53,770 nt of DNA from the IMG/VR virus record IMGVR_UViG_3300031227_000061, positions 1-53,770 of that record; one strand, given 5' to 3'. Positions 6,378 through 46,397 of the stretch are shown one piece after another (the stretch's first letter is position 1; the number at the start of each line of letters is the position of its first letter). The translations under genes were made by a program, and so were the position numbers. Origin of the DNA: a virus. Lineage: Duplodnaviria; Caudoviricetes. The notes under the pieces are model-generated. The model was not told where the DNA came from. It saw only the letters and a list, made by a program, of their open reading frames with translations, and searched no databases.

Positions 6378-6393
6378 AGGTCCCTCCTCCCTA

Positions 6394-9853: not shown

Positions 9854-10732
9854 TTAGGGTGCCGGTTCGGCCTTTCGGGCACCGATAACCAACGGCTCGC
9901 CGTCTGTGCCTCGCCTCGGGATAAGCCATCCGTCAGCCCACACTACATCTTCTCCAGATGCCGCTATGAACATCTGCGATACCTCATCGGTTGGCCCCCG
10001 CGGAATCTCGCCACCATCAGCCCGTTCCGTCACCGCCATCAGACTCAGGCCAGCCTCTGGGTAGTCGTCTCGGTAGTTGTGAGAATATCCCCTATTGGAG
10101 ATTTCGCCATAGCGCCACCCTCGCACATACAGGAGTTTCTCAATGCCGCGGAACGCCGCCCAGAACGACTGCTCAAACTCATTAGAATTCCAGGGGCGCT
10201 CCCCGAACTCACCGATGGCTTCATGGATTTCCGCGTAGACTTTGTCACCGGCGACCTCGTTCTGCCAGTGTCCATACTTCTGGTGCTGCGGATGCACCTG
10301 CAGTGTCCAAAGGGCCAGAAACTCGTCCCGGTCCATGAAGTACTTCTCGGCAATCTCGTGGGCCTTCGCGCCCAGACGCATCCCATAATCTATGAGCTTG
10401 CGAGGGGGATGCTGCTCGACGGTGGGCTCTGCCAGCGGTGTGAATTGGGGCTCTTTTGCGTTGCCCTTATCACGTGCCCCGTCGCCGCCCTTCCGGTTAT
10501 GCTGTCTCACATTGATCACCTTGCCGCTCTTCAGCCTGCGCGGATGGGACTTCACGCTGCCCTTCGCCAACGCGGATGGGAACACGACAAGTGTTTTCGA
10601 CAGGCGTCGGCGCGAACCTGTGCTCTTCGCCATCGGCGTACCGCCGTCGCCGTCCAACTGCGCCAGAAACGCCATAAACTCGCGTTCGTCGTCGGATATG
10701 CTCAGTGCGCCACGTCTCATGATGCACCCCAC
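9854..10732 (-). CDS. Hypothetical protein with N-terminal cargo-like tag
   Basis: LVVFPSALAKGSVKSHPRRLKSGKVINVRQHNRK resembles the tag on neighbouring Topo IB; start uncertain. Confidence 0.65.
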   Translation of the reverse strand: MGCIMRRGALSISDDEREFMAFLAQLDGDGGTPMAKSTGSRRRLSKTLVVFPSALAKGSVKSHPRRLKSGKVINVRQHNRKGGDGARDKGNAKEPQFTPLAEPTVEQHPPRKLIDYGMRLGAKAHEIAEKYFMDRDEFLALWTLQVHPQHQKYGHWQNEVAGDKVYAEIHEAIGEFGERPWNSNEFEQSFWAAFRGIEKLLYVRGWRYGEISNRGYSHNYRDDYPEAGLSLMAVTERADGGEIPRGPTDEVSQMFIAASGEDVVWADGWLIPRRGTDGEPLVIGARKAEPAP

Positions 10733-11673
10733 GGTACGGCGCCGATCAGTCCGCCGTGCTCGGTGTAATGCTCGAGCACCTGCGGCAGGATGTAGCTCTT
10801 CTTACAGACGCCCACCGTGTGCCCCAACTGTTCCGCCACCGACGCCACGGCCTCTTTGATCCGCGCTTTGATTTCCTTCTTCGTCAATGGTTCGTCAGAC
10901 GTTTTCCGGCTTACCCGCTTCAATGCCTCGTGGGCGAGCCGCGTTGCGTGATACGTGCGAAAGTCCTTGGCGGTGATGCCGTGCGGCTTCAGGTACGCAT
11001 TCACGTCGTCGGCTTTGACCGGCTTCTGTGTTCCGTCCGTGTCGTGATACCAGAAGAGCTTATCTCCCGGCGCATTCGCTTTCAGGTCGCTCACGAACGC
11101 CGCCAGACGCGGGTCGGTGGTGGCCTTGTCCCACTCAACCTGTTTCTTCCCGGCGAACTTGAACTGAATCTCGTTGCCGTGGACATCCACGTGCTCGGGC
11201 CGCAGCGTGGAGACGCCATAGGTAGGTGCGTGCGCCTCGGCATACCTGTCGCTGCCGATACGGAAATAGCAACGGTCGATAAGTGCGACGATGGCCGCGA
11301 GCACCTTGTCTTTGGGCGTGTCCGCCTTCGCGAGCGCCGTACCGTACCCGTTCACGATCTTCGGCAACGCCGCAGCCAGCGTCTTCACACGGGCGACTTT
11401 CTGTCGGGCGGCCTCCACATAGTGCTCGTCGGGATAGAGGTACTGCTTATTGCCTTTCGGCGTTGTGCGTATCTCTGTGGCCGCACTGCCACGGGATGTG
11501 GTCGGCTGTGCTTGCGGCGGGACGTCAACCAGCGTCGGCTGCTCCGCCTTCTTCGTGCGCTTGTCGGTATGAGCCGGGATCCAAGTGCGCTTACCATGAA
11601 CTTTCCGGTAGTGCCCTTTGACCGGGCCTTTCCGCAGCCGGGACAGCCCAAACACCACGGCGAACTTGCCCAT
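10717..11673 (-). CDS. DNA topoisomerase IB (bacterial/poxvirus-like) with N-terminal tag
   Basis: QYLYP, FRIG...Y, YGVSTL...H, F.GKK, KDFRTY.A, LGHT..VCKKSYI give the R-K-R-H-Y catalytic set. Confidence 0.92.
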   Translation of the reverse strand: MGKFAVVFGLSRLRKGPVKGHYRKVHGKRTWIPAHTDKRTKKAEQPTLVDVPPQAQPTTSRGSAATEIRTTPKGNKQYLYPDEHYVEAARQKVARVKTLAAALPKIVNGYGTALAKADTPKDKVLAAIVALIDRCYFRIGSDRYAEAHAPTYGVSTLRPEHVDVHGNEIQFKFAGKKQVEWDKATTDPRLAAFVSDLKANAPGDKLFWYHDTDGTQKPVKADDVNAYLKPHGITAKDFRTYHATRLAHEALKRVSRKTSDEPLTKKEIKARIKEAVASVAEQLGHTVGVCKKSYILPQVLEHYTEHGGLIGAVPWGAS

Positions 11674-11675
11674 CT

Positions 11676-12311
11676 TTACCCGCCCCCCGGATGCTTCTCG
11701 ACCAAGTAGCCCTGCTGCGGCGTCTGCTCCGCCCCGTACCCCGGGATCGGCCGCGTCGGCGTTTCGTCACCGAAGACGAACCAGTAGATCGGGAAATACT
11801 TGTAGGTCACGGTGTACGTGTCGCCGTCGTCTGGCCCCGCACCATCCGTCCAGGTGATGACGCGCGTCGTGGTGTCAAGTGTGCAGTCCGTCCCGATGGT
11901 GTACTCTGTCCCGCTGTCGCGCACGTCCACCAACGCCGAGGGATACGGCCTGCTCAGTGTGTCTTCGCCACGCGCGACACGCTCCGAGTGCGGCTTCGGG
12001 CGCTGCAGCAGCACGACCTTGTCCATCGGCGTCAGGAGTATCTCCGCCGGCCACACCTGTATGTTCAGGTCGCCGGCCTTGATGAGCCCCTCTTCCGTGT
12101 GCGGGTACTTCCGCTTCTCCCGCGACACCAGAGCCCGCACGTCCGCCGCAAGCGTCTGCTCCGTGTAGATGTGCCCGAACTCGCACTTCGTGCAGGACCT
12201 GTCGAATTTGTTGTACTCCGGGTTGTAGCACGAGCACGGAACCGCGCGCCACCAGCGGATGGTTTCACCGCCCGCCCTGATTGCCTGCCTGAAGACCTCG
12301 GGGTTGAGCAT
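11676..12311 (-). CDS. Head-closure/neck protein
   Basis: WWRAVPCSC...CTKC..G.IY N-terminus as in SPO1/K-like neck proteins; synteny. Confidence 0.65.
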   Translation of the reverse strand: MLNPEVFRQAIRAGGETIRWWRAVPCSCYNPEYNKFDRSCTKCEFGHIYTEQTLAADVRALVSREKRKYPHTEEGLIKAGDLNIQVWPAEILLTPMDKVVLLQRPKPHSERVARGEDTLSRPYPSALVDVRDSGTEYTIGTDCTLDTTTRVITWTDGAGPDDGDTYTVTYKYFPIYWFVFGDETPTRPIPGYGAEQTPQQGYLVEKHPGGG

Positions 12312-12314
12312 TGA

Positions 12315-13076
12315 CTACAGGACTCCCAGCACGAACGGCCGCTCGCGGTGCTTGTATTTCTTCAGGAACGCCAATTTTTGCTTCTCCAGGTCTTCCAGTC
12401 GCCGCTCCACGGTGTCGAAGTTCTGAGTGAAGCCGTCGAGGGTCACGCTGTTCGGGAGCAGCCCACGCGCCCGGCGCAGGACACGTTCCGCCGCCATCGC
12501 CGCGAGCCCCATGCACAGGTCGGCGTATTCGTCATCATCTTCCGGGTTCTCGTACCCCGCCCGGTAGTCAATGGCGACGAACCTCGGGATCACGCCGCCC
12601 GGATACGCCCAGTAGCCTAGGTGCGGCATGAACATCAGCCCGCCGGCCGACGCCGCCGCGATGCCCGCCGTCCCATACGGAACGATGCTGACGACGCCCA
12701 GCCGCTTCTTCAGTCGCAGCCACGTAGACGGGAAGTCCAGCACGCTGAATTCGTCATTGAACTCATAGCGCATGGACAGTATCTCGATCACAGGCCGGCG
12801 GCGCAGGTGGAACCGGATCGACCGCCGCGAGAATGCCCGGTGCAGGTCCAGCGGCTCTTCCTCGATGTCGTATGAGCTCTCGCCGTCCGGGTTCATGCGG
12901 ATGGTCTTCGGCGTCAGGAGGATCCTCGTGTCGCGCTCAAACTCCGCCTCTGCAGCGACGACATTCTCCGCGTAGAAGTCGGCCTCGATGAAGCCCTCCG
13001 TGGATGCTGCCGCCGCGATGTACGGCGCGATGCCGAGAAGATGCGTTTTGACCTGTGACGTCGTGACAACAGCCAT
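12315..13076 (-). CDS. Head-tail adaptor protein
   Basis: LRRRPVIEI, IDYRAGY and SVTLDGFTQ patterns; position after capsid genes. Confidence 0.7.
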   Translation of the reverse strand: MAVVTTSQVKTHLLGIAPYIAAAASTEGFIEADFYAENVVAAEAEFERDTRILLTPKTIRMNPDGESSYDIEEEPLDLHRAFSRRSIRFHLRRRPVIEILSMRYEFNDEFSVLDFPSTWLRLKKRLGVVSIVPYGTAGIAAASAGGLMFMPHLGYWAYPGGVIPRFVAIDYRAGYENPEDDDEYADLCMGLAAMAAERVLRRARGLLPNSVTLDGFTQNFDTVERRLEDLEKQKLAFLKKYKHRERPFVLGVL

Positions 13077-13450
13077 TACTCAGCCTCCAGGGCCGCTTTC
13101 AGGGCCGCCTCAACAGCATCGCGCTTCATCCCGACCTGCCGCACTCCGTGTTGCTTCGCGAGTGCCCTCAGGTCTTTGGACGACAGGCCACCGAGGTCGC
13201 CGGGATCGTCATCGGCGACGACCGCCATTTCCGCGACCGGGGCCGGATCCGCGCATTCCTCGATGACCTGCACGTACTCAAAGTTCGCGAGGTAGTCAAC
13301 CTCGCGGTCGGGCAACGGCTCCAGCGCCATCTTCCCGAAGTCGTCGGTCGTCACGACGCCCAAGCAGATGCCATCGGCGTCGAATGCAACGCTGTGCTCA
13401 TGGACACTGATGGTCTCTCCGGCGTAGTGCTTGCAGACAACCGTTCTCAT
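13076..13450 (-). CDS. Small protein with C-terminal Rho_N/HeH-like domain
   Basis: DLGGLSSKDLRALAKQHGV...MKRDAV; start chosen at ATG 13450 after GGAG. Confidence 0.65.
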   Translation of the reverse strand: MRTVVCKHYAGETISVHEHSVAFDADGICLGVVTTDDFGKMALEPLPDREVDYLANFEYVQVIEECADPAPVAEMAVVADDDPGDLGGLSSKDLRALAKQHGVRQVGMKRDAVEAALKAALEAE

Positions 13451-13554
13451 AGCGAGCCTGCTTTCTCTCCGGTGGTTTGATACGGTCAGAAAATGTGTCG
13501 GCGGGGATCTCAATGCCAGACAGCGGACCCCCGCCGGGGTGCGGTGCGATGCGT

Positions 13555-14004
13555 CTATCCGGTTGAACCAGGCAGCGCGAAGCCGGTCCTGGTCCACGTC
13601 AGTGTCTCAGCGGCGTCGCCGGCCTCGGATGCCCCGCCCGTATCAACGGCGTACACGTACTCCGCCGATTCACGCAATACCTCGACGCGGAAGCCGGTGC
13701 CGGTCAGGTTCTCCAAACACAGGAGAACGCGGTATCCCTCTGCGGCAGAGAATGCCGGAATAGGCAGGCTGCCGATGAACGTCGCGGTGGCCGTGCAAGC
13801 GCCGTCTGTTGCACTATATAGAGTGTCGTGCGGCACTTCGTAGACCTTGCGCGAGCCGTCCGTAATGCCGCTCAGGATGATCGTCCCCACTGCGGTGGTG
13901 CCACATAGGGCATTGCCGAGCGTGACCGCTCCGTCACGACGGGGGTGCAGGCGCGTGGTCCACTTATTGAGTTGCGCACGCACCGTAGCAAGCGTCCAAG
14001 CCAT
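13555..14004 (-). CDS. Hypothetical virion protein (possible head decoration)
   Basis: SD GGAGG; directly downstream of the major capsid gene. Confidence 0.5.
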   Translation of the reverse strand: MAWTLATVRAQLNKWTTRLHPRRDGAVTLGNALCGTTAVGTIILSGITDGSRKVYEVPHDTLYSATDGACTATATFIGSLPIPAFSAAEGYRVLLCLENLTGTGFRVEVLRESAEYVYAVDTGGASEAGDAAETLTWTRTGFALPGSTG

Positions 14005-14021
14005 GATGTCCCTCCAAACGC

Positions 14022-14050
14022 AAAGGGGGCGCCCCGAAGGACGCCCCTCT
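14022..14050 (-). terminator. Terminator-like hairpin after major capsid gene
   Basis: AGAGGGGCGTCC-TTCG-GGGCGCCCCCTTT with UUCG tetraloop. Confidence 0.75.
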
Positions 14051-14094
14051 GCAGTGATTGGTTACTGGTTTGCGTCAGGTACAGCCGGTGCCCG

Positions 14095-15540
14095 CTACAG
14101 CGGGTCCCAGGTCTCCAGGACACGGCTGGACAGGATGTTCTTGATGAGCACCATGCGGTGCGGCACGGACGGCTGGACGCCGCCGTAGATCATTTGCAGC
14201 CAGCGGTAGGCCGGCGCCAGGATGGCGAGCGGGAGCTTGCTCATGCCCATGAGTTCGATCCACTCGCAGCACGGCATCTCCGTGGACAGGTCAAGTCCGA
14301 AGCCGTGCGTCGCGCCGGGAATCCAATCGCCATCGTCCTCGAAGGTCGTGCTGCCGCCCACGTCGGCCGCACAGTTATAGAGATAGCGGCACTCGGTGCC
14401 TTCCGCGGTCGCGTCTCTGACGCCCCGGTAGATGCGGAAGCCGGTGACGGCGGAGTCTGTGTGGGTGATGGTCAGGGTGACGACTTCGCCCACGGTGACG
14501 GCGACGGCAGAGGCGACGGTGGACGCCGACTCGCCGTTGGCGTTGATCGACGTGACGCGGTAGCGGTAAGAACCGGTCGCCACGGTGCCGCCGGTTCCTG
14601 CAGACGCACCCGAGACGACGGTCGGCGCAGCGGGTGCCGCGTTGGTCGCGTCACCGCCACGGCTTGCGCTCGGCGCCGTGTGCAACGGCGTGGACTCGGT
14701 GAACCAGCCCTGATGATCCGCGAGGAAGAGGTCGTTGACGAGCGCGACCGGCCCCCACGCGGTGTCCACGGTGCCGATGTCGATGCCGACACGGGCGTTG
14801 CCGTGCGACGTCTGATCGGTCACGGTGAATCGCTCGGCGGAGGTCATGTTCTTGTTCAGGTCTGACTTGCTGCCGGGGTCGAGGAAGATATGCGTCGGCG
14901 TGCCACCGTGGTTGCCGATGACGTCGGCGATGTTGTGCAAGTAGGTCTCGGCGTCGAGGGAACCGCCGGCCAGGTCGATGGTGCATTCGGAGTACCCATT
15001 GCCGACGATGGTCGGCAGGAGACCGTCGATGTTGTCGGGGACGACGTCCGTGTCGCCGAAGAACAGGGCGCGCTCAATCTGCCCCATCAAGAACTTGGTG
15101 CCACGCGCCTCTTCGCCGGCTTCGGCGGACTCGATGTTGTCGGTCAGCGTCAGGACGTGGGTCACAGAACGCAAGGTACGGAAGAACTTCACGTACGCCA
15201 GCTTCCGCTCGAGATCGGAGTCGGTGGCAGGCGGGTTATCGCCCTCTGCCGAGACGGCGCCCCAGGGAGCACCGTAGTCATTGGCAACAGTGAACTGGTT
15301 CACCGTGGAACCGACCTGATGCCGCTTCAGGATGTTGAACAGCTTGACGTGCTTCTCCGCGAACAGCATGTCGCGGAGCATGTTGTCGAGCGACTCAGTA
15401 CGTAGAGCCGCACCACCGGTCATGGATGAGGGGTCAACGCCGGCGCCCGCCGAGAGTGCCTTGGCAATCTCGCTGAAATTCGGATCAAACGGGCCGAAGT
15501 TCCCGGCGAAAGCCTGTTGGTACGGACCATTCTGGTACAT
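14095..15540 (-). CDS. Major capsid protein, SPO1/phage K-like, with Ig/FN3-like insertion
   Basis: IAKALSAG...GGAALRTESLD N-terminus, IERALFFGD, DGL, and APAAPT...YRYRVTSIN..GES insertion. Confidence 0.92.
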   Translation of the reverse strand: MYQNGPYQQAFAGNFGPFDPNFSEIAKALSAGAGVDPSSMTGGAALRTESLDNMLRDMLFAEKHVKLFNILKRHQVGSTVNQFTVANDYGAPWGAVSAEGDNPPATDSDLERKLAYVKFFRTLRSVTHVLTLTDNIESAEAGEEARGTKFLMGQIERALFFGDTDVVPDNIDGLLPTIVGNGYSECTIDLAGGSLDAETYLHNIADVIGNHGGTPTHIFLDPGSKSDLNKNMTSAERFTVTDQTSHGNARVGIDIGTVDTAWGPVALVNDLFLADHQGWFTESTPLHTAPSASRGGDATNAAPAAPTVVSGASAGTGGTVATGSYRYRVTSINANGESASTVASAVAVTVGEVVTLTITHTDSAVTGFRIYRGVRDATAEGTECRYLYNCAADVGGSTTFEDDGDWIPGATHGFGLDLSTEMPCCEWIELMGMSKLPLAILAPAYRWLQMIYGGVQPSVPHRMVLIKNILSSRVLETWDPL

Positions 15541-15566
15541 TACAAGCCTCCTCGTATTCGGTCACG

Positions 15567-15595
15567 AAAAAGCCCCCGCCGGGTGGCGAGGGCTC
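15567..15595 (-). terminator. Terminator-like hairpin just upstream of capsid gene SD
   Basis: GAGCCCTCGCC-ACCC-GGCGGGGGCT followed by TTTT. Confidence 0.7.
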
Positions 15596-15632
15596 TTGTG
15601 GTTTGCGACAGGTTGTGTACGTCAGGCGGGTG

Positions 15633-16562
15633 CTACTCGCTGTCCTCCGGAATGCGCGAGAGGACCTGAGCGATGGGAACGGGGTTGCCGCTCTCGTAGC
15701 CCAACTCGACAGTGCGGACGTCAGCAGCAGTGATATCGCCTTCGCCGTTCTTCAGCGCCTTGCGAACGCGCGAGATGGCCTTCTCGGGGTCTGTCGGCAC
15801 ATCAACGCCGCCGATGTCGCGTGAGTCAGCACCGCCCGCGGACTTCTCCACGGTGGTGTACGGCGCTTTCTGCTGCGCGCCGGCGGGGATCATGCCCATG
15901 CGCTGCAACCCGCCTTCGAGCACCTGCATCCGCTCATCCATCTGCTCGAATGCGCCGCCGATGCTCTTCGTCATGGCCGTGATCGACTTGACGAGCTTGC
16001 CCGTCCGGCCGGCATCGCGCTCGTCATAGGAGCGCATAATGGCGTTCATGAGTTCATTGCCATCAAGCACGCCGTCGAACCCCTGTTCCTTGAGTGACTT
16101 CTCCAGGCCGGTCAGTGAGCGTCTCAACAGATCCTCATCCTCCTCGCCGGGTACGCCGGCGGCGTCAAGGGCTGCGTCGATGTCGGCTTCAGCGTCGTCC
16201 TCGACACCGTCCGCGTCCTCGTCGTCATAGTCCAGGTCCAGGTCTTCGTCGCCCTCGGCATCGGGCGGCACTTCGTCTTCCAGATCGGACTCGTCAACGG
16301 CCTTGCCGATGCCCACGAGGGCCTTCAAGCCACTTGTGGCGTGGGCAAGCGACTTCAGGACGCGGCCCATGCTGCCCTCGTCCTCGGCGTCGGCGCCATC
16401 AACGTCGTCGATGGCCTTGTTGATGGCCGTGTCCTCGTCTACGTCCTGTCCGTCGCCCTCCGCAGGTTCAGAGAGAGCCTTGCAGATAGCGACGGCATCG
16501 TCCGCTTCGAGTGTGGCGGGGTCGAGCCCGTGCTGCTCGCAGAACTGCGCGAATGCGCTCAT
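15633..16562 (-). CDS. Capsid scaffolding protein
   Basis: Very acidic, coiled-coil, many K-S/K-A sites, between protease and capsid; ATG 16562 after AGGAG. Confidence 0.8.
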   Translation of the reverse strand: MSAFAQFCEQHGLDPATLEADDAVAICKALSEPAEGDGQDVDEDTAINKAIDDVDGADAEDEGSMGRVLKSLAHATSGLKALVGIGKAVDESDLEDEVPPDAEGDEDLDLDYDDEDADGVEDDAEADIDAALDAAGVPGEEDEDLLRRSLTGLEKSLKEQGFDGVLDGNELMNAIMRSYDERDAGRTGKLVKSITAMTKSIGGAFEQMDERMQVLEGGLQRMGMIPAGAQQKAPYTTVEKSAGGADSRDIGGVDVPTDPEKAISRVRKALKNGEGDITAADVRTVELGYESGNPVPIAQVLSRIPEDSE

Positions 16563-16587
16563 TATCGCTCTCCTTTGCTTGTACATG

Positions 16588-16613
16588 AAAAGCCCCCGCA
16601 ACGTACGGGGGCC
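16588..16613 (-). terminator. Hairpin plus T tract upstream of scaffold gene
   Basis: GCCCCCG-TACGTTG-CGGGGGC-TTTT. Confidence 0.6.
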
Positions 16614-16663
16614 ATAAAGCACAGTGCATCTATCATGTCGCCGTCAGGCGGGGGTCGTTACGG

Positions 16664-17671
16664 TCACCTCACCCCCCTGCGGCCTTTGAGCGATGCCAAT
16701 GCCTTGCGCACGTTGCGCGCGAGGCGTTCGATATTGGGCCGGCTTCGTCGCCGCCGCTTCCGCCTGTTGGTTGTTGTCAGAGATTTCTCCGTTTTGCGGG
16801 CCATGGCGGCGCCGCATTCGGTGCAGGCGAGGTCGTCGCAGGGTTCGCCAACGTCGTGCTCCTCTTCGTGCCCACACGACGGGCACACACAGAGCCCGCC
16901 CGGGCCTGCTGCTTCCGGGCCACCGTTGCGCCCCAGATAGTTGTCGCGGGCGCCGCCTTCGAGGCTTTCGCGCTTGATCGCCTGCCCACCGGTCATCGTG
17001 GACGGATTGACGCCGCTGCCGGCCGCCAGGGCTTTCGCCAGGGCAAAGACCGTGGGGTTCGGACGTACGCGCTTGATCTGTTCCAACTCTGGCTGCACGA
17101 CAATGACGTCAGGTCCGTCGCCGTCAGTGGTCTGGGCGTCGTCAGACAGCGCCGCGGAGAGGCTCTTCACCACCCGAGCAACCGAAGAGGGGTTCACGGG
17201 TTGCGCACATAAGGCGGCGCCCTTCGAGATCATCTTCTCAAAGCCGCCTCCAGGCTTGCGGATGGCGACACCGTCAGCAGAGAACCCCAGCTTCGCGCCC
17301 GCGTCGGCGAGGTAGTGCGCACGCTTCAACGCCGGCGGTGCCAGGGCAACGTCATTGATGGGATAGATGCGCGTCTCGATCCGGGTGCCTTTGCCGTTGA
17401 GGCGCACGTCAAACTCGCGTGCGGCATCGGCGGCCGTAATCGACCGCACGTCGGTGATTTCACCAATGGTCTCGTCGCCGTGGTCCCAGTTGACCTTGCC
17501 CCACTCGCGCATGTAGTCGTAACTCTTCTGCATCATGTCAAAGGGGATGCTCTCGCCTTCGAGATCGACAGTCTCGTCCGACAGGATGCCGACGACGCGG
17601 AGGGAGCCGTCCGCCTGCTTGACGGACTTGAAGAGCGGGATATATGTGGCGATCCTGAGTTGGTCAGGCAT
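16664..17671 (-). CDS. Prohead maturation protease with C-terminal extension
   Basis: [23 protein letters not shown] (His), LGFSADG (Ser), ALCAQPVNP; start 17671. Confidence 0.88.
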
Positions 17672-17690
17672 TGGTCGGTCCCCCGAATCA

Positions 17691-17719
17691 GAAGAGCCCC
17701 GCCGTGGAGGCGAGGCTCG
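17691..17719 (-). terminator. Hairpin upstream of protease gene
   Basis: GAGCCTCGCC-TCCAC-GGCGGGGCTC-TTC; stem nearly identical to the one at 7381. Confidence 0.55.
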
Positions 17720-17774
17720 GGTTGAACAATAATGTCGATAGTTATGCGTAAGTGTCGGCGTTTTTGTGCACACT

Positions 17775-18146
17775 TTATGAGCGAGACTCGGCTACCAGTC
17801 GTCGCAACAGCGCGCACGTCTCCAGCATGTACTCGGGCGGGTCCGCAACAAGCTCGGGACACGGGAACCTTCGGCACATATCGGGCCGGGTCTCATAGAT
17901 GCCGCAGCGCCCGTCCGGCAGAATGTGCTTGCACTCACAGTCGATGCGAATTTGGTCGCCGTCGTAGTACGGCTCGCCTAACTGTTCGACATTCGACAGC
18001 GTCTCCGCAACGTCGTCTTTGAGCCGCTTCCGCTGCCATGGCCTGCCTGTGAGGGCTCCGTAGACGTAGAAGCCCCTGCAGCAGTTACCGTCGCACTCCG
18101 CGCACTCCGGTGCGTTCTCCCGCTTCGCGAGTTCTGCGTCAGTCAT
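17775..18146 (-). CDS. YkgJ-family cysteine-cluster (CxxCxxxCC) protein
   Basis: CAECDGNCC...[25 protein letters not shown]. Confidence 0.88.
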
Positions 18147-19009: not shown

Positions 19010-19015
19010 GCCCCC

Positions 19016-19051
19016 AGTCTATCGGTCCATCCGCCACGCAGCTACCGACCT
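19016..19051 (-). promoter_or_regulatory. Putative phage-specific promoter 2: AGGTCGGTAGC-N19-TAGACT (possibly leaderless)
   Basis: 16-bp identity with copy 1; the radical SAM ATG lies 6 nt after the hexamer. Confidence 0.7.
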
Positions 19052-19311
19052 GCAGCCCCAATCATCCGCTGCAACGTCACCCGCTCTTTGCACAGGTCCA
19101 CATAGTACCCACGGGCCTTCTGAGCACGCGGCTTGTCGGCAAGTGGCCCCATGGCCCCAATGGCCTCTTCAACCTTCCCCAGGCGCTCCTGTGCGGCCCG
19201 GATAACGTCCTCATCAAGTGCCTTCGCGGCGTGCCGTCGCCCTTCGGCGTGTGCCGTCAGCTTGCGGAGGCCGGCCACGGACGCCTCGTGCTGCTCTCGC
19301 GTGATTGCCAC
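19042..19311 (-). CDS. Hypothetical helical protein
   Basis: 89 aa ORF translationally coupled to the helicase gene. Confidence 0.6.
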   Translation of the reverse strand: MAITREQHEASVAGLRKLTAHAEGRRHAAKALDEDVIRAAQERLGKVEEAIGAMGPLADKPRAQKARGYYVDLCKERVTLQRMIGAAGR

Positions 19312-22300
19312 TATGCCGCCGCCTCCGAGGTGTTGGTGATCTTCCGCGCGTCTTGCTCAAGGTTGTGGTGATACATGCTCCTGATGAGCCCCGCGCGGCC
19401 CGTGTCGTCGAGGAGCTCCGTCGCCTCCTGGAATGTGCTACCCAGCTCGTACTTGTCTTTGACGCGCTGTGCGTTGCGCTTGTCGAGTGGCGTGTCGGCG
19501 ATGGCGTTATGGACGTACACCTGCTCACGCAACTGCCCGATCCGGTGCATACGGCCGGTTCGCTGCTCGTGTGTCTTCGCCGTCATCGGCTGATCGTAGT
19601 GGTACAGCCAGCCGGCGCGTTGCAGGTTGGCGCCACACGCCGCCGCGTCGGACGCGATGAGAATGTCACTCTTTGCGGCCTCTCGCGACGCCTTCGCGCG
19701 TTCCGCCGGCGACATGCCGTCGGTGTCCAGCGGCGGATGGAAATTGAGCCGCGCCACTTCCTTCTCAGTTGACTGGTTCTCGCCGGTCAGGATGCCGACG
19801 CGGTAGCCGGCTTTCTCCATCTGCTTCTTCAGCATCCGGCAGCTTGCCAGGTTGTGCGCGAACACGATCCCGGGCAACTGCCCGCCGTCGTCGTCTTTCG
19901 CGGCGTACTCCTGCGCCGTCGCCATGACGTGCTGCAGCTTTGCGTTCTGCTCTGGCGGCACGTCATCGGAAGCGTTCTGGATCCGACTCAGGGCAATGTC
20001 TCTCAACATGCCCGCCGCCGATCCGCGCTCAACGGCAATCGCCTTCGCTTCTTCGTCAGTCGCGCCCTCAAAAGAGCGAGGAGAGAGCGTTCGCAGGGCT
20101 GCAACATGCTCCGGGGAACCGGGTTCGGCGACCTGTGCTTTGCGATAGCTGGCCAGCACCTCCCGATAGGCGTCTCCCTGATGCTTCGAGAGCTTGATTT
20201 CGTGGTCTTTGACGACCATTTCGGAATCCGGCGAAATCTTCGTCGCGTACACGTACGGGGCCATTTCGCGCTGCAGGGCCTCGCGCGTCGCCTTCGTGTC
20301 GAGCCCGTAGCGGCGATGAAACTCCTTGTAGCGGCTCTTGGGATACAGGTCGGGCCGCAGCTTGTGGAGGACGTCGAATGCCTCCGACGTGTCGTTCTTA
20401 ACCGGAGTTCCGGTGGCATTTACGTGATAATCATGAGCCGTCGTCAGGTCGTCAAGGGCGTTCGCCATGACGCTGTTCGGCTTGCCCACACGGTTGAGGA
20501 GATCGTGCCCCTCGTCGATCATCGAGAAGTCGAACGTCCAGCCGGCGTCTTTCAGTGCTTCCTGCACCTGCGGGCGGCGCTCTTCCTCTTTCGTCTGTCG
20601 CATCCAGGTCGCGGCGGCCGTCACGTCCCCGCCGAACCGCTGTTGCGCCACTTCGTACACAATGTCATCGCGCATCGCCTGATGGGTCACGAAAACCATA
20701 TCGACCTTCGGGTCCTTGTAGGCCGCGAGGCGTTGCGACAGGGGCATACCGGCGGCCACTTTCCAGCGATACCCGCGGGTGCCGTCGGCAGAGTGCGGCT
20801 CGAGGAACCGGAGCGCCTCAGAGCCAAACTGCCCGGCGACCACGGACGGCACGGCGAAGATGCCCTTCGAGACTTTGCCCTGCTTCTGCAGGTTGGTGAA
20901 GGAGCCGAGGCCCATCAACGTCTTGCCAGACCCCACGCCGGCATGAACGCCGACGCGCCCCTGCCTTTCCACGAGCTTTACGGCACGCTGCTGAGGAGCG
21001 TACTTGCCATCCATCGAGACGGCCGGCGGAAGGCTTACGGCCTGCCCCGGACGAAAGTTCACCGCAAGTTGCGGCATGATCGCCGCCAGTTGCTGCTCTA
21101 CGCCGTCGCCGAGGGTGGCGCGTTCTGACAGCGGCTTGTACTCGTCTTTGTCCGCGTCATCGTCGAAGTCGAAGCCGAATGACGACTGGTGCGCGTTGCG
21201 CTCGTCTTGGAGTATTTTATCTACAAACTTACGCCGCTCGCCCGGCAGGAATTTCCCTTTCTCATCGCGAAGCGCCACGTTCGCGCCAATCTTTGCGCGC
21301 CTGCTGGTTTCTTCCTCGATCTTCCGTTCCCGCTCTTCTGCCGTCATGGTGCCGATGGTGAACCGATCCCAGTTGGGGACCTGCTTCGTGCCGGCCTTGA
21401 GTGCCGCGCCTGTGCGCGAGCCGTACTGCTTCGCGAATGTCTCGAGGAACGCCCCGCGCATATGGTCGCGTACGGCGTCGTGTGCGTCGGAGACCGACGA
21501 GAACGACGACACAAAGCGTTCCCATGCGTCCGGCGGGGCTTCCGTCGGTTCCCCTTCCGCCGCGCCACGGGCAACCTCGATCTCTTCGCCGAAGATGTTG
21601 GTCTGCACGCCGGCGGTCTCTTCTGCCCGCGTCTGTGCCGTACGGACGGCCTCACGCGCCGTTGTCGCGTCCTCGCGGCTGTCGGCGGTCAGGTGCTCCC
21701 AGAAGTAGTCACGGAGTGCCGACTGTACCTGGTGCCGGTTGTCCTCCGAGACGGGTGCGAATGCCATCGCCGCCTCCGGCATTTCGGTGAGCGTGGCGTG
21801 AACCGTCTCGTCAGTGATGTGCCCGAGTATGATGGTCTGAGCCCCGAGCGTCGGCACGTCCTCTGCCAATTCGCCGCGGTGGATCATCTTCTGCCGGGCG
21901 GCCTCGGTTCGTTCGGCGTACCACGCCGCCTGTTCGTCGGTGTCGAGGTCATCAGGTGGGAAATAGTCGCGAATGGCGTCATTGTAAGCACGCTGCAGGT
22001 CATTTGGGACGTTCTGCGAGATGAATGCCTGCGTTGTGGCCTCTCGTCGCACCGCCCGCGGGTTGTACGGGTTGTCGGCAAGGGCACGGTCGAGAAAGTC
22101 GAATGTCTCTTCCTGCACGGCGTCGGGCGCCATGCCGGTGTCGAGGGCGATATCCCGCTTGAATGCGAACGCCGCTTCGGCCTCGGGGTACGTGATTTCC
22201 TGCGACGGGTCCCGGAAGCCGGCCGGCAGCCAGCCGTCCTCGTCCTGCTCTCCGGACTTGATGGCGACGGCGTCCTTATAGTCCTGCGCCGCTTCCGGCG

Positions 22301-24203
22301 ACGGCGGGTTGAGGAGCTTGTACTCCGCTTCCGGCGCGATCCGGAGATACTTGTTGTTGAGGTCAGAAACCACTTCATGCTCGCCGGCGTCGAGGCCGAA
22401 TGCCGCGGCGAGTTGATGCGCCTGCTTCGAGCTTATCTGGCCGAGGGATGCCTTGATTTCGGCCGGGTTGTCATTCATCATCGCGAAGTTCAGCGTGCCG
22501 ATAAACTCCAGCCGGCCGAGGGCCTCGCCCAGGGTAGACGCCGCTTCGTCCAGCAACTCCTTCCGCTGCTCATTCAACTGCTGCACCATCATCAGGTCGT
22601 CGGCGTCGCAGTCGGAAAGCGTCTTCATGCCGGCGACCATCGCGTCCGCCTGCTTGATGAGGGCAGCACCACGGGTTGCGGCCCCGCGTGCGATCTGCGC
22701 CTGTGTTTCGGCGGGTCTTAGATTTTGTACAGCGCGTTCCTCGTTGATTTCCTGTAGGTCCTCGACGGTTGCCGTATGCGCCCGTTCAAGCCCGTTGCGG
22801 ATGGCGCGGAACATGGCGGGGCTGTCCTTGTACTTTTCCTTCCAGGTGTTCGCCAACAGCGTTGCCGTCGCGTCGAGGCCGATGTGGTCGGCAACGAGAC
22901 GGTCAATCGGGCACGGCTCCTGCATGATGCCTTGCGCTATGTCCATCATTTCGGCGTAGCGGCCGGTGTTGATGTGCTCTTCAGCAGGGGCCGCCGCCGG
23001 GTGGTTCTCCTGCGCGTCCTCGATGGTGGACATGAGCGTGTCGAGTGACTGCTTCATGTTCTTCTGATGGAAGTCGGCTTTGAGCGCCTCTTCGAGCTGC
23101 TCCCTATCACGCTTGCCGATATTCTGTGACACAACAAGCGAGACACCCTTCGTGATTTCGAGCACCTGATCGGCGTCGGACGCCCGCCCGAGCTTGTTGA
23201 TTTCCGAGTTGACCGCGGCCATCTTCTGCTTGTACTCCTGGCGGGCCATCAGAACGTCTTTGAGCTTCGCGGGGTCGATGGGCTTTTCTGCGCCCTTGAC
23301 GCGATGCAGGCCCTCTTCCCGCAACGGCTTGTCGGCTTCCCGTGCCGAGGCCGCCCCGGCCAATAGTTTCTGCGTCATTTCCTCCGCGATTTCGGCGTCC
23401 GCAATGTAGCCGCTCTCTTCGGCAGCGGCGAACGACGCCAGCCGCGTTTCTTCGGATAGCTCGCCGGCTTCCTCGCCGCCAAGCCCGTTCTCTTCCGCGA
23501 ATGCCTTCAGGCTGTCCATGTAACCGAGCCCGGTGGTGTCTTTCTGCGCGGACGTGTCAATATCGCCCAGCGACACTTCGCCCATTTCCGCAGCGCGCTT
23601 GTCATTGTGATACTTGAGGAGCTTCTCTTCCTCCTCCGCAATGCGCTTGTCTACTTCAGCCATGGCGCTCTTCTGGCGGGCACGCTCAAACCGTGCGCGC
23701 TGCTTCTCGGGCATCTGCTGCGCAATGTCATCCGGCAGCCGCACTGACTCTTCCCAGCCCTGCGCCTCCGAGATCGCGGCAAGGTATTCTGCCGTAGCCT
23801 CTTCCTTGGCACTCGCGAGTTGCTCCGCCGCTTCCGCCTTCGCCGCCTTGGCGTGTTCCGGCAGTGCTTCATTGCGTTGCTGCTTTGCCTGCTGCCGTTC
23901 CCGCGCCGTCTGCTTCCACTCTTTCTCCGACCGCAGGCGCGTGAGCTTCATCGCATTCAGCTTGCCGCCGGCCCCGCCGACCACCGTGCCCGTGCCGTCC
24001 GAGTTCACCCGGATCTTGATGGGCATGCCCTTGGAGTCGTCGCCGCCCGGGTGGACCGTGATCCACTTGTAGTCCGGCTCATCGACGGCTTTGTACAGGA
24101 CCACCGACTTTGTGAGCGTCCCCCAGCGGATAAGGGCGTCCAGGACGTTCGCCGGGATGTGCTTCGGCAGGCGATAGGTTTTGTCGGCGACGCGGATGAG
24201 CAT
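19311..24203 (-). CDS. Giant protein with C-terminal SNF2/SF2 helicase (DarB-like position in head module)
   Basis: GVGSGKT, DEGH, ATGTPVKN, GANLQ and QRTGRMHRIGQ motifs; about 1050 aa helical N-terminus. Confidence 0.9.
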   Translation of the reverse strand: MLIRVADKTYRLPKHIPANVLDALIRWGTLTKSVVLYKAVDEPDYKWITVHPGGDDSKGMPIKIRVNSDGTGTVVGGAGGKLNAMKLTRLRSEKEWKQTARERQQAKQQRNEALPEHAKAAKAEAAEQLASAKEEATAEYLAAISEAQGWEESVRLPDDIAQQMPEKQRARFERARQKSAMAEVDKRIAEEEEKLLKYHNDKRAAEMGEVSLGDIDTSAQKDTTGLGYMDSLKAFAEENGLGGEEAGELSEETRLASFAAAEESGYIADAEIAEEMTQKLLAGAASAREADKPLREEGLHRVKGAEKPIDPAKLKDVLMARQEYKQKMAAVNSEINKLGRASDADQVLEITKGVSLVVSQNIGKRDREQLEEALKADFHQKNMKQSLDTLMSTIEDAQENHPAAAPAEEHINTGRYAEMMDIAQGIMQEPCPIDRLVADHIGLDATATLLANTWKEKYKDSPAMFRAIRNGLERAHTATVEDLQEINEERAVQNLRPAETQAQIARGAATRGAALIKQADAMVAGMKTLSDCDADDLMMVQQLNEQRKELLDEAASTLGEALGRLEFIGTLNFAMMNDNPAEIKASLGQISSKQAHQLAAAFGLDAGEHEVVSDLNNKYLRIAPEAEYKLLNPPSPEAAQDYKDAVAIKSGEQDEDGWLPAGFRDPSQEITYPEAEAAFAFKRDIALDTGMAPDAVQEETFDFLDRALADNPYNPRAVRREATTQAFISQNVPNDLQRAYNDAIRDYFPPDDLDTDEQAAWYAERTEAARQKMIHRGELAEDVPTLGAQTIILGHITDETVHATLTEMPEAAMAFAPVSEDNRHQVQSALRDYFWEHLTADSREDATTAREAVRTAQTRAEETAGVQTNIFGEEIEVARGAAEGEPTEAPPDAWERFVSSFSSVSDAHDAVRDHMRGAFLETFAKQYGSRTGAALKAGTKQVPNWDRFTIGTMTAEERERKIEEETSRRAKIGANVALRDEKGKFLPGERRKFVDKILQDERNAHQSSFGFDFDDDADKDEYKPLSERATLGDGVEQQLAAIMPQLAVNFRPGQAVSLPPAVSMDGKYAPQQRAVKLVERQGRVGVHAGVGSGKTLMGLGSFTNLQKQGKVSKGIFAVPSVVAGQFGSEALRFLEPHSADGTRGYRWKVAAGMPLSQRLAAYKDPKVDMVFVTHQAMRDDIVYEVAQQRFGGDVTAAATWMRQTKEEERRPQVQEALKDAGWTFDFSMIDEGHDLLNRVGKPNSVMANALDDLTTAHDYHVNATGTPVKNDTSEAFDVLHKLRPDLYPKSRYKEFHRRYGLDTKATREALQREMAPYVYATKISPDSEMVVKDHEIKLSKHQGDAYREVLASYRKAQVAEPGSPEHVAALRTLSPRSFEGATDEEAKAIAVERGSAAGMLRDIALSRIQNASDDVPPEQNAKLQHVMATAQEYAAKDDDGGQLPGIVFAHNLASCRMLKKQMEKAGYRVGILTGENQSTEKEVARLNFHPPLDTDGMSPAERAKASREAAKSDILIASDAAACGANLQRAGWLYHYDQPMTAKTHEQRTGRMHRIGQLREQVYVHNAIADTPLDKRNAQRVKDKYELGSTFQEATELLDDTGRAGLIRSMYHHNLEQDARKITNTSEAAA

Positions 24204-27038
24204 TTAGGCGGTTCTCCTGAAGGCGACGGCGAAGCGGAGGGACTTGCGTACCACTTCCCCGATCTGCCGTAGCTGCTTCACCAGGTCTGCGTCATAGGGT
24301 ACGCGCCAGCCGATAGCACCAGCGCCACCGGTCTGGACATTGTTGAGACTCCAGTCGTCGCCATCCATGCCGTTGTTCCTGACATACCAGATATGGGTGT
24401 TGCCAATCACGAAGCGGTCCCCGCCACCGTGAGCATCAAATGTGTCCGCAATCACGTCGCCAAATGGCTTCGTTGGTCCGTCGGGCTTTTCTCCATCATT
24501 CATGATGTCTCTGGAGATTTGGTCGCGAACACTTTGCGCGCCAACCTGTTGGGCCGTTGCATCGCGCTCCGCCTGCGCGGGGGCGGCCTCTTCGCCCGTT
24601 GCGGGACGTGCCTCAATCGTCCACCCATAACCACCATCGGGGATGTCCATGAAGCCGAACGACATCGCGTCATCCTCGCTGTAGTACTTCGGTGCTCGCA
24701 GCTTGGTTACGACATAATCCTGGGGAGCGCCGTCTTTGCCATGGAGCGTTACCCTATCGCCCACTTTGTGGGGTGCATACTTGCCCGATGTCCCTACCCG
24801 GAATGTCTCAACTTCGGCCGGCGCCACGGGCGCGCTGTCGGCGGTCTTCTCCCCCTTCGGGAACACGACGGCGGTCTTCTTCGGGGCGGGCTTGTCGGCA
24901 TCGGTCGAGTTGGCGATGGACTCCAATTTCTTGCGGACACCATCGTACTTGCTCAACGGAAGTACCCACGCACGGTTCGGTTTGTCCCACCTGCCCTTGC
25001 GGTTCTTCAGGAATTTGCGGAGGTCGTCGTCATACGGCGTCTTCACTGCGATGGTCTTCTCGCCGACGGTGATGGAGTATGCGCCCGACTTCCAGTTCCG
25101 TTCGTCTTCGGCGACAGGCGTCTCCGCCGCCACTCCGGGAACGCTTTCATCGGCAGCGGGTTTGGCCTCGGGTGGTGGCGCGTTCCTCATTGCATCGCGG
25201 AGAGTATCCGTCGGGTTCGTCTGCATTTCCCACCAAGCGGGGTCAGTGATGGCAATGCACTTCTGCGCGGCGGCCAGTGCGGCGTCTCTCTGCTCCGGCG
25301 TTCCACGGTGCAACCGCGGGCGAACATCGCTGGCGTAGGTCGACATGAAATTGCGGCGGTTGTCGACGGCGCGGCGGGCGGTCGTGGTCTTGAAGCTCGG
25401 GCAGGCGGGCATACCCTTGGCCTCGTCCATCTCGGGCAGCGGGTATGTCTCTCTCCAGCAGGCGGTGCAACGCAAGCCCCTGAGATACTTCATGCCATCC
25501 GCGCTCACAGGACCAGGAACATTTTCGGTGTGCCCGCAAGACCTTCGCACGCTGACGCTTGTTGCGCCGGTGTCAGGTGTACTCTCTTCCTTCGGCTCTT
25601 CCACAGGCGCGGCAGGCTTCGGCACCGGCTGCTCCTGCTTCTTCGGTTCTCTCGCGGGCACCGGCACGTCTTCTTCGCCAGGGCCTTGGAATAGGCCGAG
25701 TTGCCCCGCTTCATCAGCCTTCTTCGTCCGCCGGTCCGTGTGCTGGGGGACCCAGATACGCTTCCCGTTCACCGTCCGATAGTGGCCCTTCACGACGCCT
25801 TTGTGCAGCCGCACCCACTTCGCGGCGTCCCCGAAAACGACGACCAACTTGCGCACGGATTTCGTCACTGCATCATCCCCAAACAGAGACGCCTGCTCCC
25901 GGCGGCGGACCCTCTGCCGGTTCCCGGCGTTCGCGGTTTCGTATTCGCCGCTGCTGCTGCCCATCGAGCGCACCGTGGCCCAGAAGTCGGCGTGGATGGT
26001 ATGCGGGCTGTACACGTTCCCGTACTCCGAGACGAGCCGCCTCAGCAACGGCGTGTGCGCTTTCTGCCCGTAGGCGTCGGGCGCCGACCAGGTACTCGTC
26101 ACGGCGACGCCGGAGCCGTCCTTGAGCGCCTGCGTGTGGACGGTGCCCATGAGCTTGCCTCGGGCGTCATAGATGCCGTAGCCGCGCTTCGCGCCCGCCC
26201 CGTGCTGCCGGAGCATGACGGGCAGGTCTTTCGCGATGAATGCCTGGTGGTCGGCGGTCGCCTTCCCGTACCGCTTCTCGAGCTGCTCTGCGGACCTCGA
26301 GGCGTGCTTCGAGTTCTTCATGGTGACGCGGGGGCCTTGTGCGCGCTGAGGCTCAGATGCGTCCCCGCCGTTGCCTGTCCGTGATTGACGGCTGTGCCCG
26401 CTCACTTGGACGGTTCGGCCGTTCACGCGGCGAGTGTACGGGGCGATAGGGGCGACGGCCTTTGAGAGCTTCTCGCCGGTCCCCAGCTTGAATACGTGCT
26501 TCTCGCCGTCGCGCTCAAACTGTACCGTCACCCGCGGCGCCGTCCACTTGAAGCTGGGCACGTCCACCCGCTTCTGTGCGGCACCGTTCTGCAGCGTCAC
26601 GTGCGGGTACCAGTCGTAATCGGTCTCTACGGCCTGCCAGTGGTGTTCAAGCGTCTCCCGCAAGTCCGCGTATGCCTCCGCCCCATGATCGACCTTGACG
26701 GTGCCCACGAGGGGCTTCTCGGGGCTGTCGAAGACGGCAGAGCCGGAGACCTCGCACTTGAGCGGGTCCGTGCGCGCGGCCCAGTCCTGCACGGCCGCCA
26801 GGATGGCTTCGCGGTCGGCGTCAGTCGTGACGCCTTCCTGCAGGTAGAGAACCGTCATATGCAGATCGTCTTCGAGGCGCGGGATGGCGGAGAACGCCTT
26901 GCGCGCCCGTGGAGGGAGCCAGACGGCGACGAATGCCGTCTTTGCCCCGACGGGGACCGAGACGCTCTTCATCAGCCCCCTCAGCCCGAACACCACCGCC
27001 GTCCGCTTCGGTTGTCTGCGGCGAAAGCCTATGAGCAT
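24204..27038 (-). CDS. Multidomain (polyvalent-type) protein: 2H phosphoesterase, GNAT-like, Cys/His knuckle, DUF5710-like and unknown C-terminal domains
   Basis: LHMTVLY and PHVTL (two HxT motifs); GNAT-like strands ending PDAYGQK; CGH...CTAC; TPYDD...K..KGRWD...AW. Confidence 0.8.
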   Translation of the reverse strand: MLIGFRRRQPKRTAVVFGLRGLMKSVSVPVGAKTAFVAVWLPPRARKAFSAIPRLEDDLHMTVLYLQEGVTTDADREAILAAVQDWAARTDPLKCEVSGSAVFDSPEKPLVGTVKVDHGAEAYADLRETLEHHWQAVETDYDWYPHVTLQNGAAQKRVDVPSFKWTAPRVTVQFERDGEKHVFKLGTGEKLSKAVAPIAPYTRRVNGRTVQVSGHSRQSRTGNGGDASEPQRAQGPRVTMKNSKHASRSAEQLEKRYGKATADHQAFIAKDLPVMLRQHGAGAKRGYGIYDARGKLMGTVHTQALKDGSGVAVTSTWSAPDAYGQKAHTPLLRRLVSEYGNVYSPHTIHADFWATVRSMGSSSGEYETANAGNRQRVRRREQASLFGDDAVTKSVRKLVVVFGDAAKWVRLHKGVVKGHYRTVNGKRIWVPQHTDRRTKKADEAGQLGLFQGPGEEDVPVPAREPKKQEQPVPKPAAPVEEPKEESTPDTGATSVSVRRSCGHTENVPGPVSADGMKYLRGLRCTACWRETYPLPEMDEAKGMPACPSFKTTTARRAVDNRRNFMSTYASDVRPRLHRGTPEQRDAALAAAQKCIAITDPAWWEMQTNPTDTLRDAMRNAPPPEAKPAADESVPGVAAETPVAEDERNWKSGAYSITVGEKTIAVKTPYDDDLRKFLKNRKGRWDKPNRAWVLPLSKYDGVRKKLESIANSTDADKPAPKKTAVVFPKGEKTADSAPVAPAEVETFRVGTSGKYAPHKVGDRVTLHGKDGAPQDYVVTKLRAPKYYSEDDAMSFGFMDIPDGGYGWTIEARPATGEEAAPAQAERDATAQQVGAQSVRDQISRDIMNDGEKPDGPTKPFGDVIADTFDAHGGGDRFVIGNTHIWYVRNNGMDGDDWSLNNVQTGGAGAIGWRVPYDADLVKQLRQIGEVVRKSLRFAVAFRRTA

Positions 27039-45999: not shown

Positions 46000-46076
46000 T
46001 TGCTTACCCCTCCGTCCGTCGCATACTCTCCGGCCACTCCTGGCGGAGATCGTCGCCCATGACGGGGCGTAAGTTG

Positions 46077-46397
46077 TCACTCAGCGTCGGCATTGCCGGC
46101 ATCCCCAGTCATTTCTGCGTGTGCAATCTTCTGCCGGGTCACGTCGAGTGTTCTCTGGCGACTGGCAATCAGCGCGACCAGCCGTTGTTCTTCCGCACGA
46201 TCCCACTCCAACCACTCGTCGGGCGTAGGGCAACCGGTGCCCTTATGGCCAGAGCACGGATAGTCTTTGTTCGGAAATGAGACCAGGTCGTTGGCTATAG
46301 CCCATTCGACTGCAGCCGACAGAGTTGGAAACGATGGGACCATATCGTTCTCCGTACTTAGTTCTAGGCTTCCGACTAAGGGCCTTCCAGGCGTCAC
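46077..46397 (-). CDS. Hypothetical protein
   Basis: ORF overlapping the upstream membrane gene; start uncertain. Confidence 0.4.
   Translation of the reverse strand: MTPGRPLVGSLELSTENDMVPSFPTLSAAVEWAIANDLVSFPNKDYPCSGHKGTGCPTPDEWLEWDRAEEQRLVALIASRQRTLDVTRQKIAHAEMTGDAGNADAE

Follow-up and report, generated by a model that had tools for sequence, protein, structure and literature searches.

Which features mark a protein for carriage in the head of a phage and for injection into the host? The choice of head-packed, injected proteins is known in detail for T4 only, and partly for P1. The question is raised by a 53,770-bp virus sequence from IMG/VR (IMGVR_UViG_3300031227_000061; here the window, by which we mean this whole stretch of DNA), which is ~58% complete as estimated with CheckV, has ~63% G+C and encodes three proteins with a shared peptide tag: a multi-module protein of 944 residues (p944), a topoisomerase IB (Topo) and a 292-residue protein (p292). 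A preliminary description had proposed that this tag, together with maturation-protease sites, forms an address that loads unrelated enzymes into the prohead for release and co-injection with the DNA. Our results show that the tag is portable, being attached to passengers of many kinds, and is not private to this phage, and, judging from sequence patterns and gene context, it probably marks proteins that are carried in the phage head. The cassette has two separable parts, a protease-site-like motif, [LMIFV]-x-K-[SAG], and a predicted cationic two-stranded beta-ribbon of ~25 residues.

All three proteins are encoded on the minus strand, p944 at 24204..27038, Topo at 10717-11673 and p292 at 9854-10732. 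Residues 3-46 of Topo align with a segment of p944 (window 25707-25850) at 66% identity, with 43.4 bits and E=9.0e-13, and the 22 of 29 identical residues that had been reported for these two copies proved correct in the alignment. When a hidden Markov model (HMM) was made from the two strong copies and the six-frame translation of the window, in 988 pieces, was searched with it, p292 was identified at E=0.0011 (14.8 bits; the runner-up was at 0.24), and the family HMM, for which 130 copies from other proteins were used, scored the full p944 copy at 49.3 bits, Topo at 49.6 and p292 at 43.5 (E=4.6e-13), so that the tag previously claimed for p292 is upheld. A second copy had also been proposed in p944. 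It scored weakly, at -1.1 bits with the two-copy HMM and, when the family HMM was used, at 11.9 bits (i-E 0.0076), but it is conserved in the p944 homolog P0022, and because the hairpin is clearer at the equivalent position of that protein we consider the weak copy to be genuine, bringing the number of copies in the window to four in three proteins (two in p944 and one each in Topo and p292). Since no other piece of the window scored with the family HMM, the helicase and the portal protein, which had also been described as tagged, are designated as untagged. At the DNA level the tags of Topo and p944 are identical at 70 of 102 nucleotides and use the same codon for 12 of the 24 identical residues; the similarity is thus held at the level of protein. 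In view of these diverged codons we rejected the idea that the likeness stems from a recent duplication of the DNA.

The modules of p944 (matches to PF13563, phrog_2659 and phrog_18108) are arranged in the order leader, 2H phosphoesterase (PF13563, residues 54-157), degenerate tag, unassigned module, full tag, Cys/His knuckle and further modules, among which phrog_18108 matches residues 644-708. The N-terminal leader (residues 12-25; 26964..27005) has a basic stretch, an AVVFG strand and an LMK-S site and lacks a hairpin; P0022 has the same leader with a hairpin directly after it. The degenerate tag (residues 191-220, the second copy itself at 198-217; 26379..26468) combines an LSK-A site with a weak hairpin, and the full cassette (residues 391-444; 25707..25868) consists of a VTK-S site, a VVVFG strand, an LHK-G site and the cationic hairpin. 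Further along are an internal AVVFP strand without hairpin (residues 721-731; 24846..24878) and, at the C-terminus, a VRK-S site with an RFAVAF strand (residues 930-944; 24207..24251). The ribosome-binding site of the helicase gene (AGGAGA) lies within the last p944 codons (window 24204-24235), and because of this overlap the C-terminal R-R-T-A of p944 is constrained. In Topo the cassette is N-terminal (residues 1-44; 11542..11673; AVVFG, LRK-G and hairpin) and is followed by the catalytic body (10717..11541; PF01028 at residues 89-303, E=8e-35). In p292 the cassette (residues 44-86; 10475..10603; LVVFP, LAK-G and hairpin) precedes a passenger region (9854..10474) for which no match was found in Pfam, PHROGs or NCBIfam, and the Atlas gave no usable match. 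The start of p292 is ambiguous (a GTG, M5 or M34); a start at M34 would place its VVF strand at residues 15-19, as in p944. A leader is at the N-terminus in Topo, p944 and probably p292. Of the claim that the tag sits on unrelated enzymes, the topoisomerase IB and 2H domains are confirmed, and the status of p292 as an enzyme is unproven, as it is without a family match.

The VVF strand, written as [AVLIT][AVLI]VF[GP], occurs five times in the 56-ORF (open reading frame) proteome of the window, each time inside p944 (residues 14, 399 and 723), Topo (residue 5) or p292 (residue 48), compared with a mean of 0.46 and a maximum of 4 in 500 shuffles. In the wider family described below, a VVF-like strand was found within 18 residues upstream of just 11 of 221 copies. 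The strand, formerly taken as part of the tag in general, is specific to this phage lineage, in which the basic stretch plus VVF leader strand is a third, local element.

How far the tag extends was apparent from searches of much larger collections. A profile of the three copies matched 75 clusters at E<=1e-3, two of them at E<=1e-10, among 1.84 billion representative proteins; one match, P0029, was rejected as a false positive due to repetitive sequence. A word-based search with 54 aligned copies found 59 proteins, 41 of them new, and in total the family HMM identified 237 tag copies in 115 proteins, with one copy in 38 proteins, two in 44, three in 24, four in six and five in three, at a median spacing of 257.5 residues. 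The core common to these copies is [LMIFV]-x-K-[SAG] followed by the cationic beta-hairpin. For 221 copies the alignment extends to the first position of the model; 220 of them have the lysine, 219 have S, A or G directly after it, 217 have a hydrophobic residue (L, M, I, F or V) at P3 and 211 have V or I as the third residue past the lysine. Of these copies 46 are N-terminal and the others are internal.

The tags head or separate passenger domains that are mostly those of polyvalent proteins. In a Pfam scan of 69 proteins, which were the 75 less P0029 and the five longest, the passengers included InPase (11 proteins), LPD1 (7), RadC (6), ART-PolyVal (6), SNF2, SAM lyase and DUF3293 (3 each), TopoIB, Zeta toxin and GNAT (2 each), and one each of ParB, DarA_C, 2H, PT-HINT and others. 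Among the tagged proteins of other phages are SNF2 helicases of 1621-1705 residues with a tag at the start and one or two more after the helicase core, near the C-terminus. The helicase of the window has therefore either lost its tag or never had one. The tagged records span 34-60% G+C.

The cassette is uncatalogued in Pfam, NCBIfam, PDB and the literature searched, supplements being outside that search. No Pfam family matched the five tag-bearing segments of the window at E<=10 and no NCBIfam family matched the tag at E<=1, and the sole match in PHROGs was of the C-terminal end of the unannotated phrog_10678 to the hairpin (best E=1.4e-5). Sequence matches to PDB entries were chance matches to arginases (E ~0.3) and were set aside.

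Among cultured phages the tag is scarce. A tblastn search of GenBank phages with the p944 tag returned nothing, a canonical copy gave one match at E=0.7, and no match to the tag was found in plasmids. In cultured collections P0014 had no match and P0019 had only unrelated C-terminal ones, and a pattern scan of species genomes returned nothing, which is weak evidence given that the patterns were narrow. Scans of viral contigs with single proteins (tag, Topo and P0022) found no relatives, a word-based search with the Topo tag found only the window's own protein, and the giant DarB-like proteins of PBC5 were without the tag. A divergent form of the tag, h-h-L-K-[AG]-x-h-x-G-[YH]-x-[RK]-x-[DN]-G-T-x-V-x-P-[HY]-x-R (h, hydrophobic), was identified at the start of gp032 and gp027 of the Bordetella phage PHB04 and of gp31 of Touem01. 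The carriers, encoded at 6325-6903 and 9514-15807 of locus L030 (PHB04) and at 402-1193 of locus L003 (Touem01), are an HD phosphohydrolase, a DarB-like methylase of 2097 residues and a hypothetical protein. A third PHB04 protein, gp028, is also listed as a carrier of this variant.

The link of the tag to the phage head is based on two kinds of evidence, the lysine site and the gene context. For the former, sites matching [VILMFAC]-x-K-[SA]-[LIVA] were counted in the head proteins and compared with the numbers expected from shuffles. The acidic scaffold (15633..16622, minus strand; net charge -42, with 75 D/E in 329 residues) has nine such sites where 0.32 are expected, the putative prohead protease (16664..17773, minus strand; likely start M35, weak phrog_1028 match) has four where 0.29 are expected, and the SPO1-type major capsid protein (MCP; 14095..15540, minus strand; phrog_752 at E=3.1e-75, PF17236 at 27.5 bits with a cut-off of 24.1) has one at residues 25-29. 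The presumed maturation site of the MCP is I-A-K27/A28-L (window 15454-15468); K27-A28-L29 is invariant in five MCPs, that of the window and those of four tag-bearing records, and when the N-arm of the window MCP is aligned with those of SPO1 and Touem01 the three agree in L/I-x-K-[AS]-L-x-A-G. Across the window, SPO1, Touem01 and the four tag-bearing records, the K-[SA] motif recurs in the N-arm of the MCP, at the C-terminus of the protease and at many places along the scaffold, a distribution that, on the sequence patterns, would be expected for substrates of a maturation protease. The C-terminal part of the protease holds a copy of the MCP N-arm segment of the same phage, and this mimicry may be how the protease gets built into the prohead. 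The near copy, which begins at the K-A site, is at protease residues ~243-272 and has counterparts in SPO1, Touem01 and records G007 and G008. At the C-terminus of the protease (window 16664-16900) there is also a knuckle of four cysteines, then a tail of R-R-K-R-R-R-R and, beyond it, another two K-[SA] sites; the tail may bind DNA or scaffold.

In p944 itself there are four lysine sites (at residues 22, 191, 391 and 930) where 0.94 are expected, a modest enrichment, and they look like module borders. Those at residues 191 and 391 are of the structural type (K-[SA]-V) and are conserved between p944 and P0022, just upstream of the weak copy and of the VVF strand, in linkers that are otherwise variable. 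The sites of the helicase were at chance level (2 versus 2.09 expected) and the single K-S site of the portal protein (residue 602 of 620) was not significant; with no hairpin in either protein, the idea that they carry the tag has been dropped. For SPO1/K-like capsids, cleavage at a site of the K-S type had also been asserted. We found no statement to this effect for the SPO1/K-type capsid in the literature searched, and the related MCP of Felix O1 is described as unprocessed in the available text of PMC3185647.

With respect to gene context, an IMG/VR scan with nine close copies identified 16 viral loci, in which small proteins with N-terminal tags are encoded beside giant proteins (up to 2,520 residues) with up to four internal tags. 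Twenty flanking proteins from eight records were analyzed: portal families were just upstream in seven of the eight (the exception was L019), and MuF-like minor head or head-morphogenesis families were present in four (L007, L012, L011 and L008). Homologs of the window MCP were identified in five of ten whole records (G003, G004, G005, G007 and G008; E 1e-23 to 1e-63), four of the ten being 14-31 kb and too short to judge the presence of an MCP, so that an SPO1-type MCP was found in five of the six records of at least 43 kb; among the 50,697 phage records of GenBank, by comparison, 405 have a match to it. In a search of five records with the tag alignment the tags were upstream of the MCP gene and on the same strand in G003 (7/7), G004 (9/9) and G007 (1/1), and in G005 (4/4) if that record is read as circularly permuted. 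In G003, G004 and G005 they are located between the identified portal and the MCP; G007 has no identified portal, and G006 had two short tag matches. In the window the tagged genes are surrounded by those for terminase, portal, protease, scaffold and MCP, all on one strand, and the two p944 copies are between portal and capsid gene. The tag belongs to late head-module gene blocks and co-occurs with one capsid/protease type.

Based on these observations, we propose that the tag serves as a portable cassette, either as a leader or at junctions, on effectors that travel inside the head and leave it together with the DNA, in a mostly uncultured clade of phages with SPO1-type heads, a reading that we judge to be about equally likely to be right or wrong. 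It is inferred that these proteins are packaged, cut at the lysine and co-ejected, and the partner to which they bind is inferred as well. The precursors would enter the prohead along with the scaffold, the likely driver being the binding of the cationic ribbons or the VVF leader to the very acidic scaffold core. While degrading the scaffold the protease would cut after the lysines at module borders, leaving the ribbon at the new N-terminus of each freed enzyme, and the ribbon would then ride on the packaged DNA and exit with it at infection. It follows from a cut at the lysine that the hairpin would be kept on the cargo, and the cassette is then not the removable address that had been envisaged. 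That SPO1-type capsids in general have a portable cargo code, in which h-x-K-[SAG] plus ribbon gives scaffold recruitment, release by the protease and genome-bound co-injection, is a more tentative proposition, possible but short of an even chance.

A number of observations weigh against this proposal. The canonical tag is missing (E<=0.1) from the cultured phages SPO1, PHB04 and Rb1, which have the same capsid type, and Touem01 has only a weak partial match (E=0.0015). The lysine site of the tag is the same as the structural sites at P3, P1 and P1' but differs at P2' and P3': the tag has H, R, K or Q at P2' and V or I at P3', whereas structural sites have L, I or V at P2'. The suggestion that capsid, scaffold and tag have a site in common therefore stands for the P3-P1' signature and fails beyond it. 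The record G006 (70.8 kb, 82% complete) is without a detectable SPO1-type MCP. The tags of Topo and p292 are downstream of the capsid gene, past the head-tail genes. Because the tag-bearing records were found via the window's own profile, the capsid association is partly one of shared ancestry, and because the copies were selected by the motif itself, the conservation counts are somewhat overstated; the family HMM was likewise derived from motif-selected matches. In 46 of the 221 copies the lysine is within the first 16 residues, in some at residue 5-8, where a cut removes few residues. Lastly, in the predicted structure described next the lysine flanks the ribbon beside the conserved H-x-D-x-R end and may be conserved for structure alone.

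In the main alternative the hairpin binds nucleic acids as a beta-ribbon, much as the arms of HU/IHF do, and holds an effector on DNA or the replisome after injection, with the lysine and the hydrophobic residues before it being structural and capsid loading, if any, being due to other signals. AlphaFold2 (AF2) modelling of a 59-residue p944 segment with a 54-row alignment predicted a two-stranded hairpin with strands at residues 28-32 and 35-39; the predicted local distance difference test score was ~95 for residues 31-40, 83 for residues 21-30 and 67.1 as an overall mean, and the VVF region was unstructured. Consistent with a role as a DNA tether are this ribbon fold and the net charge of +7 to +10 over ~35 residues in the window copies, as well as the fact that several of the passengers act on DNA (TopoIB, SNF2 and ParB). 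In addition, Q-x-x-[LM]-F peptides, which we take to resemble the beta-clamp-binding motif (consensus Q-L-[SD]-L-F-like), flank the p944 tag (QASLF/QLGLF at residues 382-386 and 446-450, about 25689-25895) and are present within 30 residues downstream of 15 of 146 family copies versus ~2.2 expected. There are three such peptides in the window proteome in total, the third at residue 35 of the protein encoded at 45034-46080, and gp027 of PHB04 also has one. However, DNA is not what many of the passengers work on (InPase, ART, SAM lyase, zeta kinase, 2H and GNAT), neither the head-module placement nor the single capsid type is predicted by a tether, and the near-invariant h-x-K-[SAG] matches the site of the head module. 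We consider the tether as a sole explanation to be rather unlikely, and it is compatible with head carriage and could equally be a second function of the same cassette. A complex prediction of tag, MCP and protease, made without controls, gave a score of 0.00 and weighs neither way.

Two further explanations seem improbable to us. The one tag per module at the median spacing noted above, the N-terminal position in many proteins and the head-module context would all suit an ejection leader, an unfolded cationic segment that threads modules through the portal and tail channel, with the DNA or behind it, and is not a loading address. For such a leader no precedent is cited, and it leaves both the protease-site match and the link to a capsid type unexplained. 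To the other explanation we give equally little credence: here the lysine would be cut by a host protease after injection, or by self-processing, freeing the modules inside the host. The modules do have disparate targets, and polyvalent proteins have been argued to be processed into units (available text of PMC5512222), yet Pfam searches of p944, Topo and p292 gave no peptidase domain, and in six lineages the site motif recurs within the one head module, in its MCP, its scaffold and its protease. That the cassette is a functionless neutral linker or a recombination joint left by module shuffling, as the shuffled modules between the tags of p944 and P0022 might suggest, is very improbable in view of protein-level conservation despite divergent codons, a lysine in 220 of 221 copies across records of such varied G+C and the confident hairpin prediction.

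The late genes of the window run on the minus strand, as judged from the ORF map with family searches. The large terminase (33689-35545) and the portal protein (31830-33692; 620 residues, phrog_12) are followed by a short plus-strand island, p229, p944, the SNF2 helicase, p89, a radical-SAM protein, p123, the putative prohead protease, the acidic scaffold, the MCP, four head-tail genes, Topo, p292, p279 and tail genes. The helicase (19311..24203, minus strand), which is in the cargo block, has 1630 residues with an SNF2 match and a long N-terminal region without family. Its residues 43-113 (window 23844-24203; K-W-I-T-V-H-P-G-G) match the unannotated phrog_25904, another conserved small module. 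The radical-SAM protein (phrog_9298; 18143-19009) and the Cys-rich protein of 123 residues (17775-18146) are inside the head module between helicase and protease. By identity the closest cultured capsids are those of the Pseudomonas phage Touem01 (32%), the Morganella phage Mecenats66 (31%) and SPO1-like Bacillus phages (~29%). Between p944 and P0022 there is 56% identity over 270 residues, and the flanking modules of P0022 differ.

The proteins in this study have much in common with polyvalent proteins as presented by Iyer et al. 2017 in the available text of PMC5512222, which have the domains 2H, SNF2, InPase, ART-PolyVal, LPD1, ParB and DarA_C, are encoded adjoining portal and other virion genes, and for which head packing, injection and processing were predicted, zincin-like metallopeptidase domains being the proposed processing device. 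From this vocabulary 2H and SNF2 are found in the window, and InPase, ART-PolyVal, LPD1, RadC and ParB in tag-bearing relatives. Such a peptidase domain is frequent but not obligatory in polyvalent proteins; in p944, the helicase, Topo and p292 no peptidase family was found (Pfam E<=0.01), and while p944 combines 2H, phrog_18108 and unassigned modules, the small single-module proteins Topo and p292 carry the same cassette, which differs from what PMC5512222 describes in its available text. A cassette of lysine site plus hairpin is not mentioned in the main text of that paper, and, supplements aside, we found no description of it in the literature searched.

The prohead-protease motif of T4 ends in glutamate, as opposed to the presumed K-[SAG] here. 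As described in the available text of PMC9024508, the capsid-targeting sequence of T4 is, as our cassette may be, a short leader on unrelated cargo that ends at a prohead-protease site; it is portable to foreign proteins, but it is N-terminal only and is removed, whereas the element here is after the presumed cut, has internal copies (up to five in a protein) and would be kept. The giant SNF2/methylase-type anti-restriction proteins packed in the P1 head are a second parallel. An N-terminal signal of 30 residues is sufficient for the loading of DarB and the Dar N-termini have no consensus (PMC9024508, same text), and DarA is cut by the P1 prohead protease according to the available text of PMC12810830. 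In P1, as far as these sources go, there is no shared signal where here one recognisable tag is found on many cargo proteins, and its capsid is different, with a glutamate-type MCP site (E120/S121). The propeptides of the ejection proteins of the giant phages SPN3US and phiKZ are a further parallel, in that the prohead protease recognizes one short motif in a large set of proteins inside the head, but the protease motif and the capsid lineage are other ones and no conserved hairpin module is mentioned in the abstracts. Encapsulin cargo-loading peptides are likewise short and portable and direct unrelated enzymes into an HK97-fold shell, but they are not known to be cleaved, to be cationic hairpins, to be phage-borne or to involve co-packaging of DNA. 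Already known, then, are polyvalent proteins with predicted packaging, cleaved leaders (T4) and an N-terminal signal (P1 DarB). What appears to be new is a cassette defined by sequence that recurs where modules begin, would stay on the cargo once the presumed cut is made and goes with a single lineage of capsids.

The cultured phages with the divergent tag, PHB04 and Touem01, are bench models for this system. If the proposal is true, virion cargo would be predictable from sequence alone for more than 100 effector clusters, a way in which polyvalent proteins are divided into working units would be suggested, and the cassette would represent a compact programmable tag for phage delivery of arbitrary proteins into bacteria. 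It would also explain how polyvalent effectors without a peptidase of their own are loaded and partitioned.

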